DNA from: a virus
Length of the DNA stretch: 64,000 bases
IMG/VR virus record: IMGVR_UViG_3300007351_000004
Direction: 5' to 3' (one strand)
Of this stretch, positions 3,698-34,976 are shown piece by piece (positions within the stretch are counted from its first letter, which is position 1; each line of letters opens with the position of its first letter). The notes beneath the pieces were generated by a model. That model ran no database searches, was not told the DNA's origin, and was given only the letters and a program-made list of their open reading frames with translations. The translations under genes were made by a program, and so were the position numbers.

Positions 3698-3939
3698 TCC
3701 AACTGATGTCTAATACTATTCTCTAGTGCATCATATGATCTAAAAATATGGTGGTAAGGTAAGAAATCAGCGTATTGAAATACTTCATCATCTAAAATTA
3801 ACTCTCCAACAGTAGGAAGCCCGTGTTCATCACTACTAATTGCCTGAGAAACAAATACTGAAATTTCACGTACCAAGTCTCCAAACTCATCGTTGTCAAT
3901 CGCGTCGTTCAAAGCCTTAGTGAGATACTTCATCTCCAA
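3685..3939 (-). CDS. Hypothetical protein (tandem paralog)
   Basis: MKYLTK...EFGDLVREI...RHQLDW. Confidence 0.65.
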   Translation of the reverse strand: MEMKYLTKALNDAIDNDEFGDLVREISVFVSQAISSDEHGLPTVGELILDDEVFQYADFLPYHHIFRSYDALENSIRHQLDWMI

Positions 3940-4350
3940 TTTCCTTATCGACTGATACTCTAAAATTAGTTGGAATAAAGTCTTTTTGATCGAAATCCGA
4001 CACGCTCTCCATCAGAAAGAAAAACCGCTTCACCAAATCCAGAATTTGCTCTTGCTGCTCCCCAATTCGATCTTCCTGCACAGCGAAATCCCGATTCGGC
4101 CCCATAAAATAAACTTTAATCGTCGCAATGTATTTCACTTCTTGATCTTCCATGCCTTATAGGTTTCCTTTATAGCGTCTTCGGTCATCCATTCAGGGTT
4201 GCTCTTCAAAAACTCCCAGACTGCATCCCAAAACTGGACGACTTTTCGCCGCGAGAACTTATGATGTCGGCGCAACTTCTCTGATTCCTGATCGATCAAC
4301 CGCGACACTTCATTGATCCGATCTACACTTACTTTCATCATACACCACCT

Positions 4351-10369: not shown

Positions 10370-11485
10370 TTAACTCCCTCCGCTCCCGTCTAGAATTCTC
10401 TTTTGAGCCATCTCTACATACTCAGGATTCAGATCTCCACAGATAAACTGCCGACCACTCTGCACTGCTACTAAACCTGTAGTACCCGTTCCACAAAAGA
10501 AATCCAAAACAACACCACCAATCGAACAACCAGCTATAATCATCGGTTTGATTAGTTTTGGGGGAAAAGATGCAAAGTGTGCTAAACTTGACTGTCCTAC
10601 GTGTATATCAAACGCCAAAATCTGATTATCAACCAAAGTTCCCCTATTTTCTCGAACTTCTTTTAAGTAATTTAATTGATTTTCTGTATCTTCAATCATT
10701 ATATCTAATGAATCGTAATAGGCATCTGTATTACGGTATCGTCTACCTTTATTTTTATCTATATTCTTCTTAAAATTCTCAAGTGTTTTTCTAGCAGAAC
10801 GCGAAGAATCTGATCCGTAATCCTTCTCTCCCCCAGTTTGTAGATCAAAACCTGAATGATTAATTCTTTTTAGACTGCTCTCAGCATAAGGACGTAAAAT
10901 ATTTTCATAGTCATAATAATATTTCTTTGATTTAGAAAATAGAAAAACATATTCCAGCGAAGAAGTAGGACGATCTTTTATACTCTCTGGCATAGCATTA
11001 GGTTTAATCCACGGCATAACCGAACGCCAATACCACCCGTCAGACTGCAAAGCAAATGCTACTCGAAAGGGAATACCCAACAGGTCTTTAGATTTATACC
11101 CGTCTGGTACTGGCTGACCTTTAATTAAAGAGCCTTTATTGCTGGCTTGTTTACGACTCATATTTGGAACTGTGCCGTTTTCCCAAGTTCTGCCTGATGC
11201 CTTACCGCCCCCCGCATAACTATCTCCCAAATTCAACCACAGAGTTCCGTCATTTCGTAATACACGTCCTGCTTCACGAAATACTTCAACTAATCTCTCA
11301 ACATACTGTTCGGGAGTTTGTTCGGCACCAACCTCTTCAGGTTTACTTGGATCATTCTCGTCTAAATACGAGCGCAATCCGTAATAAGGCGGGGAAGTTA
11401 TAATACAATGTACAGACTGATCGGGCAAATCTTTGAGCAAATCTATAGCACTTTTACAGACAACCTGATTGAGATACTTATCCAT
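10370..11485 (-). CDS. DNA methyltransferase (N4-C/N6-A, beta class)
   Basis: ITSPPY catalytic motif, HFASFP, VLDFFCGTGTT SAM motif. Confidence 0.92.
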   Translation of the reverse strand: MDKYLNQVVCKSAIDLLKDLPDQSVHCIITSPPYYGLRSYLDENDPSKPEEVGAEQTPEQYVERLVEVFREAGRVLRNDGTLWLNLGDSYAGGGKASGRTWENGTVPNMSRKQASNKGSLIKGQPVPDGYKSKDLLGIPFRVAFALQSDGWYWRSVMPWIKPNAMPESIKDRPTSSLEYVFLFSKSKKYYYDYENILRPYAESSLKRINHSGFDLQTGGEKDYGSDSSRSARKTLENFKKNIDKNKGRRYRNTDAYYDSLDIMIEDTENQLNYLKEVRENRGTLVDNQILAFDIHVGQSSLAHFASFPPKLIKPMIIAGCSIGGVVLDFFCGTGTTGLVAVQSGRQFICGDLNPEYVEMAQKRILDGSGGS

Positions 11486-11864
11486 ACAGTCTCCTTAAGG
11501 GCTTGATAGGATTTAAACGCTGAATCTCCGAAATTTTCCAAGATACCCACGACAAAACTAAAGATCTAGGCGGTGAATCTGCATACTCCATATGAAACTC
11601 TAAATCTGATATATCAGATGTCACCAGACCCATAAATCTATCACTTTGGTAATATAACTGCCAAAAGTTATCCTTCAATAAATCAAGTGTCAATGAAAGA
11701 TCTTCTGTAAAATTAGGCACAGACTGCTCTAAACCACCGGGCGTAGTACCGTGAATAGACCACTCATCACCAAATGATACCTGCATATATAAATTCGTCC
11801 AGCCTAACAGATGAGCCACCAACAGATTCAGTGTTAAATCGTCGTATTCACGAATCTGATCCAT
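11478..11864 (-). CDS. Phage ABA-sandwich-like domain protein
   Basis: LNLLVAHLLGW...PNFTEDL...; start reassigned to ATG 11864 because the longer ORF runs through the tRNA. Confidence 0.55.
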   Translation of the reverse strand: MDQIREYDDLTLNLLVAHLLGWTNLYMQVSFGDEWSIHGTTPGGLEQSVPNFTEDLSLTLDLLKDNFWQLYYQSDRFMGLVTSDISDLEFHMEYADSPPRSLVLSWVSWKISEIQRLNPIKPLRRLYG

Positions 11865-11872
11865 GTCGTAGG

Positions 11873-11945
11873 TAGGCTTGGCAGGACTCGAACCTGCGAT
11901 ATCGTGTTTAGAAGACACGCGCTTTCTCCACTAAGCTACAAGCCC
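11873..11945 (-). tRNA. tRNA-Arg (anticodon TCT), CCA not encoded
   Basis: GGGCTTG/CAAGCCT acceptor, CGTGT-CT TCT AA-ACACG anticodon arm, GCAGG-TTCGAGT-CCTGC T arm. Confidence 0.95.
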
Positions 11946-24145: not shown

Positions 24146-24173
24146 TTGACACGCAACGAAAATGCTATATAAT
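24146..24173 (+). promoter_or_regulatory. Sigma70-type promoter
   Basis: TTGACA-16 bp-TATAAT. Confidence 0.7.
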
Positions 24174-30892: not shown

Positions 30893-31309
30893 ATGAATAA
30901 AATTATTGTCTACGGCGATGGTGGGTGTGAATCGAACGGCACAAAAGATGCAAAAGCATACGGATCTTTTATTGTGCAGACACATTTAGGTGGAGCGACA
31001 ATTTATCAACACGCCAGCGGTCGATTAGATTTTGGAGATCCTGCTACTAACAATGTTGCTGAAATTAAAACGTTTATTGCAGCAATAGAGTATGTGCTAT
31101 CTAGGGACGACAGTAGTGTGATCTCTTATCCTGTACTTTATTATACTGACAGTCAGCTAGTTGTCAATTGGTTGAACGGCAACTGGAAATGCAAACAGTC
31201 TCATTTGGTTCCTTTAGTGGAAGAGGCTCGTAGATTGATGCGTCGTTTTATGTCTTTATCGGTAGAGTGGGTATCACGAGAAACTATCGAGAAGATTTTG
31301 GGGCATTAG
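30893..31309 (+). CDS. rnhA: Ribonuclease HI
   Basis: YGDGGC...TNNVAEI...YTDSQLVV...WVSRE. Confidence 0.88.
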   Translation: MNKIIVYGDGGCESNGTKDAKAYGSFIVQTHLGGATIYQHASGRLDFGDPATNNVAEIKTFIAAIEYVLSRDDSSVISYPVLYYTDSQLVVNWLNGNWKCKQSHLVPLVEEARRLMRRFMSLSVEWVSRETIEKILGH

Positions 31310-32442: not shown

Positions 32443-33072
32443 ATGTTATCTAATACAGAATATGAAATTACAAATGAAGATGAGAAATATAGGGTTAAGG
32501 TTGAGTATGAGTCTGTTCAGGGGTGTTTCAGGCAGATAACCTATATTACGGTATACGCTAATGCCGCTGTGGTAACGTGTGATAGCGAAGGATACGCATT
32601 ACAGGTTCGTCCCAACTCTTTCACTGTTTACGTTGTTGATCTTGTTTCTATCCGAAAAGTGGCTCTTGAGGGAAAACAAAAATTTTTACGTGAAATTAAC
32701 AGTGAAACAGTTTCCGTAAAAGATAATATCTTTGATAAGCCCGGCATTGAGAAGGAAATAATCTCAACAAAAGAGTTGCCTAAATTCCGATGGGGTTTGG
32801 GGGGAAACGAGATGATAGGTAAATCAACTATACACGTTAAATCAGGCGCGCAGCATAAACTCGTAGAGGTATATTATCAAATAGTTAATGGACGTATAGG
32901 AGACATTGATTCGATTATTGTTAAAGATACGACAGAAAAAGAGTATGTGCTTTTTTCTGCTGATCTAGAAATAGTGGGAGTTAACGCGGGATACTATTTA
33001 ACCCTTAAAAAGTTCAAAGAAGCAGCCCAGCAGGGGTTAGATAAATTTAAAAAAGAGATTGAAGGATCTTAG
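32443..33072 (+). CDS. Hypothetical protein
   Basis: Open frame, GGAG RBS before ATG 32443. Confidence 0.6.
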   Translation: MLSNTEYEITNEDEKYRVKVEYESVQGCFRQITYITVYANAAVVTCDSEGYALQVRPNSFTVYVVDLVSIRKVALEGKQKFLREINSETVSVKDNIFDKPGIEKEIISTKELPKFRWGLGGNEMIGKSTIHVKSGAQHKLVEVYYQIVNGRIGDIDSIIVKDTTEKEYVLFSADLEIVGVNAGYYLTLKKFKEAAQQGLDKFKKEIEGS

Positions 33073-33339
33073 ACATGCGACTCCTGATGCTCACGCTGCT
33101 AATAACATTGAGTGCCTGTTCGACGTGCGTCGTTTCAGATCCAGATACATATCTATATGATAGGCTGATCAGTGCGGGGCCGATATCAGCATAGAATAAT
33201 TCCCGTTCGGGTGGGTAGTTTGCCAGTCCTGCGCTATCAGTGGTGTAGCGGATGCCAGAAATATATGCCGCCCCATCTGTTTGCGAGTTACAAAAGTGTA
33301 TACTGTCGGAAATGCAAACAGAAAATTAACGAAAAGCAC

Positions 33340-33368
33340 TTGACAAAGCATAATTAGCATGATATAGT
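33340..33368 (+). promoter_or_regulatory. Sigma70 promoter of the RNA operon
   Basis: TTGACA-17-TATAGT; predicted +1 about 33375, the first G of the tmRNA-like RNA. Confidence 0.8.
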
Positions 33369-33374
33369 ATGTAC

Positions 33375-33462
33375 GGGTCTGAAGGTATTCGACAGGGAGA
33401 AAGTCAGCAGTTTAATCGCTGGCGAGTAAATCTGGACCGGGGCTCAATTCCCCGCAGATCCA
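33375..33462 (+). ncRNA. ssrA: Mini-tmRNA (tRNA-like domain only)
   Basis: GGGTCTG/CAGATCC acceptor with G3:U70 and A73; stemless D-loop ending TTCGACAGGG; 3' TGGAC-CGGGG-CTCAATT-CCCCG; only ~35 nt internal, no tag frame. Confidence 0.8.
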
Positions 33463-33465
33463 AAT

Positions 33466-33537
33466 GCCTGCTTAGTTTAACTGGCAAAACGCGCCATTTG
33501 TACTGGCGGAATCTCAGTTCAAGTCTGAGAGCGGGCT
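33466..33537 (+). tRNA. tRNA-Thr (anticodon TGT), CCA not encoded
   Basis: GCCTGCT/AGCGGGC acceptor, CGCCA-TT TGT AC-TGGCG, CTCAG-TTCAAGT-CTGAG. Confidence 0.9.
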
Positions 33538-33539
33538 TT

Positions 33540-33918
33540 GGTTGGTAGGAGGTTGGCTTAGAAGCAGCCATCCTTTAAAGAGTGCCGAGTGGAAGAGAGC
33601 GCCGATCTAACCAGTCGGGTAATCTCAAGTTCTGGTGCATGAGACGGGTGGTGCCCGGTAGCCGTGTCCCATCGGTATGTTGCGAAACCAGAATACCACA
33701 CGGAATGGTAGCACTCTAGGGCGTCCTAATAGAGAACCCGTACTATGTTTTTCCTTCTCTAGAACGATGAACTAGAGCAAGCCAGGGGTTGCTTGTATGT
33801 TTGCATAGTACGGGAGGAAATGCGAATTAACCTGTCGGGATCGGATATGGGATGGTCTTGGCAGCAATGCAAGCAACGTGGCCGTCTGAGGCTTTGGCGT
33901 AACAGCACACTACCAACC
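33540..33918 (+). ncRNA. 23S rRNA GTPase-associated-centre (H43/H44, L11 site) mimic split by a 313-nt structured insert
   Basis: 33544-33583 + 33897-33914 join to GGTAGGAGGTTGGCTTAGAAGCAGCCATCCTTTAAAGAGT|GCGTAACAGCACACTACC; closed by 9-bp GGTTGGTAG/CTACCAACC stem. Confidence 0.88.
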
Positions 33919-33920
33919 TT

Positions 33921-34063
33921 TTGCGACTGAACCTCTGCTAGTCGGAGTAGTAGGCCGCAACCGGGGGCGCTGGGCTCCCTTGTTATCCGCCCCAGCGATC
34001 TTGGTCTGTCGTTGGGTTTGATATGGGGCTTTGCCGTGTGCCCCAGACCAGAAACGCGGCAAA
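33921..34063 (+). ncRNA. Structured RNA segment with hairpins and a pseudoknot
   Basis: TTGCG/CGCAA, CGCTGGG/CCCAGCG, GGTCT/AGACC, GGGGC/GCCCC, loop TTTGCCG pairing with CGGCAAA. Confidence 0.5.
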
Positions 34064-34385
34064 ACTTTACATAAAGGATTGAACGTGGTTCCTCTACTCG
34101 CTTTCACTCTGCTGGTTTATATCGTTATCGGCTTTTTAATTATGCCCTGGTGGAATGCCGTGTTCGCTTTGTTTGCGGCTTTCTTGGGGGCGATGTGGGC
34201 TAAAGCACATGCCGAAGAAGATAATCGTTAAAAAATTTGGAGACGTGGATCTGGTGGTAACTAAAAATGTGGAAATGTTCTTAGTGTTGTCGCGTTGGTT
34301 GCGGTTTCGCATCTGGTTGGGGCTGAGATTAATTCATCTGGCGTCATTTGTGATGGGCATGGGATTTGAGGTAAAGGAAAAGTAG

Positions 34386-34976
34386 ATGGATTTTCTGCGA
34401 CAGGCGTATTTGGATTCTGTTTATTGGGCCAGCGATATTCTAGAGCGGGATTTTGTCGTGCTCGACACGGAAACAACTGACAAGATCGAAAATGGGGGCG
34501 AGATCATTCAGTTGGGCATTATCGATAAAGATGGTCATACTTTGATGGATCAGTTGATCAAGCCTAAAGGTAAAATCTCAGCGGGTGCAGCAAAAGTACA
34601 CGGCATTACCGAGAAAGATGTGGCTAAATCGCCCACGTTTGCCGATGTATATCCGCAACTTCAGGATATTCTAAGAGATAAGATCGTTGTTGCCTATAAT
34701 GCCGAATTTGATCGGAATATTCTGAATAACACCTGCGATTTGTATGATCTGGAGCATTTTCCGAATACGTGGCAGTGTGCCATGCTCGAATACGCCAAAT
34801 ACAATGGCGAGTGGCAGTCTAAGTTTAGTTCTTTTCGATGGAAAAAGTTGACAGATGCGGCAAGTCGGTTTAATATAGTGACAGACGGTGCTCACGATGC
34901 TTGCGCCGATGTGCGTATGACACTGCAGGTTATGAAGAAAATGTCAGAAGAATATATTCCTGCGATTGGAGAATAG
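34386..34976 (+). CDS. DEDDh 3'-5' exonuclease (DnaQ-like)
   Basis: VLDTETT, AYNAEFD, HDACAD. Confidence 0.9.
   Translation: MDFLRQAYLDSVYWASDILERDFVVLDTETTDKIENGGEIIQLGIIDKDGHTLMDQLIKPKGKISAGAAKVHGITEKDVAKSPTFADVYPQLQDILRDKIVVAYNAEFDRNILNNTCDLYDLEHFPNTWQCAMLEYAKYNGEWQSKFSSFRWKKLTDAASRFNIVTDGAHDACADVRMTLQVMKKMSEEYIPAIGE

Follow-up and report, generated by a model that had tools for sequence, protein, structure and literature searches.

The 64,000-nt stretch of viral DNA considered here (the window; IMG/VR record IMGVR_UViG_3300007351_000004) carries, behind a single promoter, a transfer-messenger RNA (tmRNA) reduced to its tRNA-like domain (TLD), a tRNA-Thr and a 381-nt RNA whose two ends together rebuild the GTPase-associated centre (GAC) of 23S rRNA, with a copy of the sarcin-ricin loop (SRL) displayed from the insert between them. 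The GAC mimic belongs to a widespread and apparently undescribed family of phage RNAs, and the window holds the most compact example that we found, a 0.6-kb fragment with a promoter, a tag-less tmRNA, a single tRNA and the mimic. Its main interest lies in the large RNA, of which this is the fullest version (GAC plus SRL) in the smallest genomic surroundings, more than in any 'operon'. The reading that we favour, to which we give a probability of about one half, is that the cluster is expressed as one tRNA-punctuated transcript of independent RNA cassettes, in which the large RNA would act as a decoy or sponge imitating the factor-binding site of the ribosome and the mini-tmRNA would block trans-translation.

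The GTPase-associated centre mimic

The large RNA occupies positions 33540-33920 of the plus strand, its 5' and 3' ends jointly forming the mimic. The 5' half (33540-33592) was recognised by alignment to 23S rRNA and by R1, a covariance model of the family (53.3 bits, E 1.6e-15). It consists, in order, of the 5' strand of a closing helix, P1 (GGUUGGUAGG, 33540-33549), a copy of rRNA helix 43 (H43; AGGUUGGCUUAGAAGCAGCCAUCCU), the junction UUUAAAGAGU (23S 1082-1090) and the start of an insert helix, and positions 33550-33583 are almost identical to H43 and the 1082-1090 junction of 23S rRNA. The 3' half (33890-33920; R1 18.1 bits, E 2.4e-4) runs from the end of the insert helix through UUUG, a copy of H44 (GCGUAACAGC, 23S 1091-1100, with A1095) and ACAC to the 3' strand of P1, UACCAACC. 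Positions 33893-33918 read CUUUGGCGUAACAGCACAC-UACCAACC, the H44 loop and then a strand that complements GGUUGGUAGG, and P1 comprises nine complementary base pairs. All the parts that define the family (P1, H43, the 1082-1090 junction, the insert helix, UUUG, H44 and ACAC, with tRNAs on the same strand) are present here. The insert between the GAC halves, 308 nt at 33585-33892, is too long for one alignment, which is why R1 scores the two halves separately; its body (33593-33889, plus strand) is variable in sequence across the family and in the window carries the SRL hairpin together with a segment complementary to it. A preliminary description of this DNA had taken the rRNA mimic for a short 'clamp', when it is instead a 381-nt RNA split into 5' and 3' ends, with an SRL copy that the description did not list.

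In 23S rRNA the corresponding domain is H42-H44 (E. coli 1051-1108), the 58-nt uL11/thiostrepton domain. With it the phage RNA shares a near-identical H43 (GGUUGGCUUAGAAGCAGCC), the 1082-1090 junction, the H44 loop GCGUAAYAGC, the bases responsible for the tertiary contacts between H43 and H44, and the 1082:1086 covariation. It differs from the rRNA domain in being a stand-alone phage RNA with its own closing helix of variable sequence and no other rRNA flanking it, in having U1090 and G1091 separated by an inserted helix of 24-314 nt, and in carrying an A at U1101. When compared with 23S rRNA by blastn, the similarity stops at 1090/1091 and at the borders of P1 with no rRNA continuing past H42-H44, and Rfam gives no large-subunit (LSU) rRNA match in the window. 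Other rRNA regions were also considered within the inserts and were rejected, the secondary blast peak being a trivial repeated 9-mer.

Family, conservation and covariation

The pattern of the 3' half alone matches more than 119 viral contigs, and the split architecture occurs in the complete genomes of seven cultured phages (Xanthomonas XacN1, Pectobacterium CBB, Pseudomonas pf16, Milchi, Astolliot, UNO-G1W1 and Aeromonas 4_4572). We parsed 76 distinct elements, whose inserts range from 24 to 314 nt. Folding 24 members with RNAalifold recovers P1, both H43 stems, the helix at the base of the insert and H44, giving 25 pairs of which 14 are compensatory. The covariance model R1 returns 82 matches in 77 loci, nearly all of them full-length and scoring between 26 and 150 bits. 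In the R1 alignment the paired cells amount to 93.6%, where shuffling gives 72.2%, changes on both sides of a pair are seen in 18 of the 25 pairs, and the covariation score of 0.549 compares with 0.159 for shuffled alignments and 0.05-0.14 when the partners are slid. The equivalents of A1084, A1085 and A1088 are conserved in 100% of the family and that of G1071 in 96%, with the G-C pairs of H44 conserved at 96-98% and A1095 at 95%. Positions 1082 and 1086 switch jointly between U/A and C/G, and rRNA shows the same pairing and covariation.

Searching 596 Gb of prokaryote genomes with the 3'-half pattern gave 68 matches where we estimate that about 69 would be expected by chance. Only 16-18 of these are real, as judged by the presence of a 5' half or a tRNA array, and they lie mostly on contigs of metagenome-assembled genomes. 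The family is essentially phage-borne. Its association with tRNAs is consistent in orientation: all 431 tRNAs that neighbour the 76 elements share their strand. A same-strand tRNA is found within 30 nt of one end of the element in 30 of the 76 distinct copies, and 18 copies have an upstream tRNA no more than 30 nt from P1, mostly at -5 to +3 nt. We found no recurrent family of neighbouring proteins, the largest cluster (an AAA ATPase) being present at 6 of the 76 loci, and this lack of a conserved protein gene beside the large RNA fits a ligand supplied by the host.

Rfam 15 contains no family for the GAC mimic, the sole match being that of the LSU rRNA model in one locus (L004), which is local and scores 21.8 bits, and the models for GOLLD, ROOL and ribosomal-protein leaders gave no match in 33000-34400 (E<=10) or in five other loci (E<=1). 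Mimicry of an rRNA site is known from the mRNA leaders of bacterial ribosomal-protein operons, where, as in the L10 leader, an RNA imitates the binding site of a ribosomal protein, and GOLLD and ROOL are likewise large structured RNAs that lie beside phage tRNAs. Unlike the leaders, the GAC mimic is not upstream of ribosomal-protein genes and its mimicry is near-exact, not partial. A trans-acting phage copy of the GAC, here combined with the SRL, is something for which we found no description; no published phage GAC or L11 mimic was found in the searchable literature, although that literature under-represents subscription journals and the result is not proof of novelty.

Members of the family vary in copy number and in form. 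Some phages have two diverged copies, as in L113 (1115-1234 and 2170-2363), L042, L126 and L084, and in L093 two copies stand in tandem at 3845-4090 and 4098-4340. Six loci (L094, L115, L078, L134, L111 and L066) have a second hairpin, inserted within the H43 copy on its 3' strand, between GCAGCCA and the junction. The smallest members sampled (L033, L044 and L079, for example L079 5205-5304) measure about 100 nt and have a hairpin of 24 nt as their insert.

The sarcin-ricin loop copy

The copy of the SRL (23S H95) lies at 33800-33826 on the plus strand and reads UUUGCAU-AGUACGGGAGGAA-AUGCGAA, with a 7-bp stem, the bulged-G motif (AGUA / GAA) and a GNRA tetraloop all retained. No other strict match occurs in the 11.9 kb of inserts sampled, and chance alone would by our estimate supply about 0.006. 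Combining the motif with the 3'-half pattern led to four more viral contigs, three of them distinct (L327, L328 and L329/L330). In these AGUACGAGAGGAA is invariant, and the stems (GUUACG/CGUAAC, GUUACAU/AUGUAAU and CCCGC/GCGGG) differ and stay complementary. All of them lie in tRNA arrays, one with tRNAs on both sides. The resemblance to the 23S SRL (H95, 2653-2667) therefore extends to the sequence AGUACG(A/G)GAGGA, the bulged-G motif, the GNRA tetraloop and a Watson-Crick stem that covaries across the four sequences. Unlike the rRNA element, the copy is confined to a small subclass of the family and is missing from most GAC-mimic members, its tetraloop in the window is GGGA, and a complement upstream could mask it. 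Judged by sequence, the window belongs to a small subclass that copies both of the rRNA elements making up the translation-factor binding site.

This complement, CCCGUACUAUG (33737-33747, plus strand), is a perfect 11-nt match to the 5' side of the SRL hairpin (33803-33813), and the pairing of the two is present in the minimum-energy fold. Three of the four SRL-bearing sequences (the window, L328 and L327; not L329) have such a complement, lying some 70 nt upstream of the SRL, and it varies along with its target. Given that the SRL hairpin and the complement helix exclude each other, the two folds may constitute a conformational switch.

The mini-tmRNA

The first element of the cluster is an 88-nt, TLD-only mini-tmRNA at 33375-33462 on the plus strand, identified from its fold and from a match to the Rfam tmRNA family (RF00023; 33375-33463, 41.2 bits, local E 1e-14). 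The alignment covers the entire model, with about 290 internal positions replaced by 15 nt, and it is these missing positions that leave the score under the gathering score of 47. In the predicted fold a 7-bp acceptor stem (GGGUCUG/CAGAUCC, 33375-33381 with 33455-33461) contains the G3:U70 pair, the D loop is stemless and holds the tmRNA signature AUUCGAC, a P2-like stem bears an inner hairpin, and the T arm (33438-33454) is followed by the discriminator A33462 (A73). The hallmarks of the tRNA-like domain of tmRNA, namely the acceptor stem with G3:U70, the discriminator A, the T arm and the UUCGAC of the D loop, are therefore all found. We detected no mRNA-like domain, resume codon, tag reading frame or pseudoknots, ARAGORN calls neither a tmRNA nor a tag peptide, and CCA is not encoded.

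A TLD-only tmRNA has been published from mycobacteriophage DS6A (Hudson, Lau and Williams 2014, PMC4131195), and a molecule similar to that of DS6A strongly inhibits tmRNA, perhaps through titration of SmpB (PMC4131195). The window element is of the same type, being a phage-encoded tRNA-like domain that is complete and closed by a short P2 hairpin, and has in common with it the acceptor stem with G3:U70, A73, the T arm and the absence of a tag frame. It differs in belonging to another phage lineage, in not encoding CCA, in forming one unit with a tRNA and an rRNA mimic, and in its longer internal hairpin, with 40 nt between UUCGAC and GGAC where most matches have 28-31.

The TLD-only pattern matches more than 119 viral contigs. 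Among the 120 matches listed, which comprise 91 distinct sequences, 113 have a perfect 7-bp acceptor stem with G3:U70, and in the distinct sequences listed the neighbouring tRNAs number 96 on the same strand as against 1 on the opposite strand, with a tRNA directly abutting the mini-tmRNA in only 7 of the 91. A promoter (score >=9) abuts the first G at 4 of 82 mini-tmRNA loci, compared with 0.1% of random positions. Phage mini-tmRNAs are thus a common and separate phage RNA family, of which one member (DS6A) has been published. In five cultured carrier phages the tmRNA model picked up tRNAs for the most part, along with a 106-nt match in XacN1 (33 bits) that is not clearly a mini-tmRNA. Neither a phage-encoded SmpB nor a CCA-adding enzyme was found, and any activity of the mini-tmRNA would therefore depend on host proteins; most likely it would compete for SmpB, EF-Tu and alanyl-tRNA synthetase (AlaRS).

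Promoter, tRNA and transcript

The promoter at 33340-33368 (plus strand) is of the sigma-70 type, with TTGACA at 33340-33345, a 17-nt spacer that ends in an extended TG and TATAGT at 33363-33368, and scores 11 of 12 against the consensus. Six bases follow the -10 hexamer before the predicted +1, G33375, with which the tmRNA-like element begins. Twelve promoter-like sites of at least 11/12 occur in the window as against 1.4 in shuffled sequence, which indicates that the phage uses host sigma-70 promoters and makes the 33340 site credible; early and middle transcription appears to rely on host RNA polymerase. The twelve near-consensus sites cluster at 24-44 kb (for example at 24146, 27322 and 43896 on the plus strand and at 31167 on the minus strand).

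Between the discriminator of the mini-tmRNA and the tRNA lies a 3-nt spacer, AAU (33463-33465, plus strand), followed by tRNA-Thr with the anticodon UGU (33466-33537, plus strand), which is called by ARAGORN and by Rfam RF00005 (56.7 bits, threshold 29) and does not encode CCA. From its discriminator, U33537, a 2-nt spacer, UU, leads to the closing helix of the mimic at 33540. A related strain carries the change T33469C, which turns a U.G pair of the tRNA into C-G. The preliminary description had placed the +1 on the 5' G of the mini-tmRNA, the tRNA 3 nt past the TLD discriminator and the rRNA mimic 2 nt past the tRNA discriminator; the sequence and our consensus scan agree on the first of these, and the two spacings are correct base for base.

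No promoter or terminator consensus was detected between 33375 and 33920. According to the consensus scans, then, three co-oriented elements follow one strong promoter with spacers of 2-3 nt, which is the arrangement expected of a tRNA-punctuated transcript. Release of the three RNAs by tRNA-processing enzymes, as had been suggested, is made plausible by this architecture and by the frequency with which members of the mimic family have a tRNA within 30 nt of one end (30 of 76), and both the transcript and its processing are predictions from it. There are precedents for such an arrangement. The species 1 and 2 RNAs of phage T4 are stable RNAs of unknown function embedded in a tRNA cluster, and in the mitochondrial tRNA-punctuation model RNAs that abut tRNAs are freed by the enzymes that process tRNAs. 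The present cluster resembles both in having non-tRNA RNAs co-oriented with and abutting a tRNA, from which a similar processing may be supposed, and differs from the T4 case in that we found no sequence relation to the T4 RNAs, blastn against the phage collection returning no T4 record.

Parts of the large RNA are present as contigs in two RNA libraries, a compost metatranscriptome covering 33557-33923 and a bioreactor metatranscriptome covering 33592-33840, and independent contigs from three runs span 33552-33923. Beyond the mimic lies a non-conserved trailer (33921-34075, plus strand) with two weak terminator-like hairpins at 33963-33979 and 33991-34016, within which 33929-33965 is uncovered in all four runs compared. 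The cluster had been drawn as extending to 34065, but its last approximately 145 nt (33921-34065) are unstructured (z -0.73), not conserved and missing from all four runs, and this segment was accordingly rejected as a candidate fourth RNA. Downstream is a small hydrophobic open reading frame (ORF; 34085-34231, plus strand) of 48 codons with an AAGGA ribosome-binding site and a GTG start, encoding a putative membrane protein with no Pfam match. Transcription probably reads through into this ORF and into the genes for the exonuclease, primase, helicase and polymerase.

Possible function

From these features we infer co-transcription and processing, as well as every binding partner and effect described in this section. 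One primary transcript would start from the 33340 promoter at the first base of the mini-tmRNA, continue through tRNA-Thr(UGU) and the 381-nt RNA, and probably extend into the replication genes. RNase P would cut at the 5' end of the tRNA, leaving AAU as a short 3' trailer on the mini-tmRNA, while RNase Z/BN or exonucleases would cut at its 3' end, freeing three stable RNAs; because neither the tRNA nor the mini-tmRNA encodes CCA, we propose that a host CCA-adding enzyme finishes both. The trio would then be the 'translation RNA' array of larger phages in its smallest form, with independent RNA cassettes inserted. The ends of the large RNA would rebuild the uL11-binding GAC, with one arm of the insert displaying the SRL copy, and the presence of both copies in one RNA suggests a free-standing imitation of the site at which translation factors dock on the ribosome. 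In view of what has been established with the 58-nt rRNA fragment, binding of host uL11 would be the most probable initial event, and the uL11-bound particle could then serve as a decoy or sponge, either for a translational GTPase such as EF-G, a GTPase being the likely common ligand of the GAC and SRL sites, or for an rRNA-directed toxin. The mini-tmRNA, for its part, would be charged with alanine, bind SmpB and EF-Tu, and block or divert host trans-translation, as proposed for DS6A.

Munishkin and Wool reportedly found in 1997 that EF-G binds isolated SRL and thiostrepton-domain RNAs in vitro. Such 'ribosome-in-pieces' oligonucleotides present the same two rRNA domains outside the ribosome as the phage RNA does; they were synthetic and separate, whereas the phage RNA naturally joins both in one molecule. 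Tentatively, and with the odds against us, we would generalise further: phages may make a replica of the docking site (the GAC and, in a subclass, the SRL with a conserved masking strand or switch) which, together with uL11, captures GTPases or the rRNA-directed toxins of immune systems or competitors, and which in the window is co-expressed with a mini-tmRNA that disables rescue. If a decoy or sponge of this kind exists, it would represent a new layer of phage-host conflict at translation factors or rRNA-targeting toxins, a new class of RNA-based host take-over or counter-defence at the GTPase centre of the ribosome, and might explain part of the non-tRNA content of phage tRNA arrays. Since the GAC mimic is carried by hundreds of phages, culturable ones among them (pf16, CBB, XacN1 and Otagovirus isolates), the proposal is open to direct testing at the bench.

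A number of observations weigh against the decoy or sponge reading. In the SRL copy of the window the tetraloop is GGGA, not GAGA, with a G at the equivalent of A2660, and in the predicted fold the 11-nt complement could mask the copy and keep it closed. In the GAC part, the equivalent of A1067 is an A in only 76% of the family and a G in 18%. The sequence of P1 is not conserved across the family, and this freedom to vary means that the mimic probably lacks the uL10 site of H42. The helix inserted between U1090 and G1091, together with the change of U1101 to A, could alter the binding of uL11 or of factors. The evidence from RNA libraries consists of assembled contigs, which cannot show RNA ends or a continuous transcript, and as the compost copy runs into other DNA after 33923, it leaves room for DNA carry-over. 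With no terminator after the cluster, the whole may simply be an mRNA leader. Lastly, the trio is unique in our sample, which weakens the claim of a functional coupling between its parts.

Phage tRNA arrays are commonly interpreted as protection against tRNA-directed defences, and a comparable role can be imagined for the large RNA, as an anti-toxin decoy that offers substitute GAC and SRL targets to enzymes of the host or of competitors, such as Tre23-type ADP-ribosyltransferases or SRL endonucleases, and so spares the ribosomes of the infected cell. We consider this unlikely, while recognising it as the strongest of the alternatives. The bases that such toxins attack are conserved in the mimic, namely A1095 and A1098 in H44 and the bulged G and tetraloop of the SRL. 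Tre23 ADP-ribosylates bases 1095-1098 of 23S H44, and VapC toxins that cleave 23S rRNA are cited in the same study (PMC8661411). However, the Tre23 assays used ribosomes and rRNA and not a small mimic, a decoy would be in stoichiometric competition with tens of thousands of ribosomes, and the G at the A2660 position is a further difficulty. To our knowledge, moreover, there is no anti-phage defence that targets the GAC.

It is somewhat less probable again that the large RNA titrates free uL11, and perhaps uL10-bL12, leading to altered ribosomes or to relief of ribosomal-protein autoregulation, with uL11-poor ribosomes being relaxed and blind to RelA. The uL11-binding fold is the part that defines the family and is best conserved, and most members lack the SRL copy, such that the GAC alone must suffice for whatever they do. 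Mutants in rplK (relC) are viable and relaxed, and ribosomal-protein leaders work by mimicking rRNA, both of which would accord with titration. Such a role would nevertheless leave the SRL copy of the subclass unexplained, the H42-like helix where uL10 would bind is not conserved in sequence, and the binding of uL11 is itself a prediction.

Functional unit or cassettes

The decoy or sponge reading treats the three RNAs as independent cassettes, whereas the preliminary description had seen in them a co-regulated ribosome-decoy operon whose elements were expected to co-occur in related phages. That the elements are real, co-oriented and served by one promoter has stood; they are not conserved as a unit, and nothing points specifically to RelA. 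When flanks were examined, none of about 130 other mimic loci and none of 119 mini-tmRNA loci held both a GAC mimic and a mini-tmRNA, and only the window combines them. Co-occurrence in close relatives was judged from sequencing runs only, four runs being compared with the stretch. In these, relatives at about 91-96% identity keep the mini-tmRNA and the tRNA, and a contig from a soil run joins 33540 directly to 33982, possibly representing a variant that lacks the mimic (weak evidence, since it is a single contig, one side of which measures 29 nt). In two other samples, mimic copies with 99.7% identity part from the window sequence exactly after 33923 and run on into different DNA. A variant without the mimic and copies in other contexts would together mean that the mimic behaves as a cassette inserted directly behind the tRNA; it looks like a mobile cassette, and the trio is probably an accident of cassette accretion and not a unit.

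We consider it very unlikely that the cluster is a dedicated, co-evolved operon acting jointly on SmpB, L11/RelA and decoding. The shared promoter, the spacers of 2-3 nt and the common theme of translation speak for such an operon, as does the occurrence of full-length tmRNA genes on the same strand as the GAC mimic in five other loci (directly adjacent in L020, and also in L053, L059, L079 and L113). Against it stand the absence of the combination from every other sampled locus, the small proportion of listed mini-tmRNAs that abut a tRNA, the apparent variant without a mimic, the near-identical mimics in other contexts and the lack of anything specific to RelA. In L020, the full-length tmRNA (tag DEYLPLAA) lies about 15 nt past the end of the GAC mimic, the two features being at 11050-11373 and 11389-11571 on the minus strand.

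The most improbable explanation is that the cluster is functionless, comprising captured rRNA debris or an assembly chimera beside a 'mini-tmRNA' that is a decayed tmRNA or an attachment-site remnant: although the H43 core, over its 40 nt, hardly differs from real 23S rRNA, assembled contigs break there and Paenibacillus phage Pd_22F holds a genuine 23S-like stretch, this explanation is largely refuted by the extensive compensatory changes and by the recurrence of the split architecture in the seven complete cultured-phage genomes, and it sits poorly with the independent contigs that cross the element and with a mini-tmRNA whose acceptor stem and T arm are perfect, as in 113 of the 120 matches listed.

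Genome setting and further observations

The window is part of an 81,155-bp viral record with direct terminal repeats, from an uncultured phage, and its genes include those for siphovirus-type tail proteins and for a replication module. Neither blastn against the phage collection nor a search with the DNA polymerase turned up a close cultured relative. With the neighbouring exonuclease gene as the query, only four distant viral loci were recovered, at 30-40% identity, none of them with tRNAs or the RNAs of the cluster.

Two of the tRNA arrays sampled contain unusual tRNAs. An array of 30 tRNAs (L023) includes an amber-reading tRNA (CUA, called tRNA-Pyl by ARAGORN) at 11864-11940, which hints at stop-codon reassignment, and L020 contains at 2172-2253 a tRNA to which ARAGORN assigns a four-base anticodon (gttg). 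In Pd_22F (L008, 82475-85513) ordinary 23S sequence continues well beyond H44, unlike in the other phage matches, and this stretch may be captured host DNA or contamination. Finally, two 'plasmids' of the E. coli assembly GCF_036498665.1, pLR-72_5 and pLR-72_4 (L010 and L258), are circular sequences of 1.9-2.9 kb consisting of 23S rRNA sequence; the H43 region of pLR-72_4 differs from what we take to be the E. coli sequence, and both are probably assembly artefacts or contamination.

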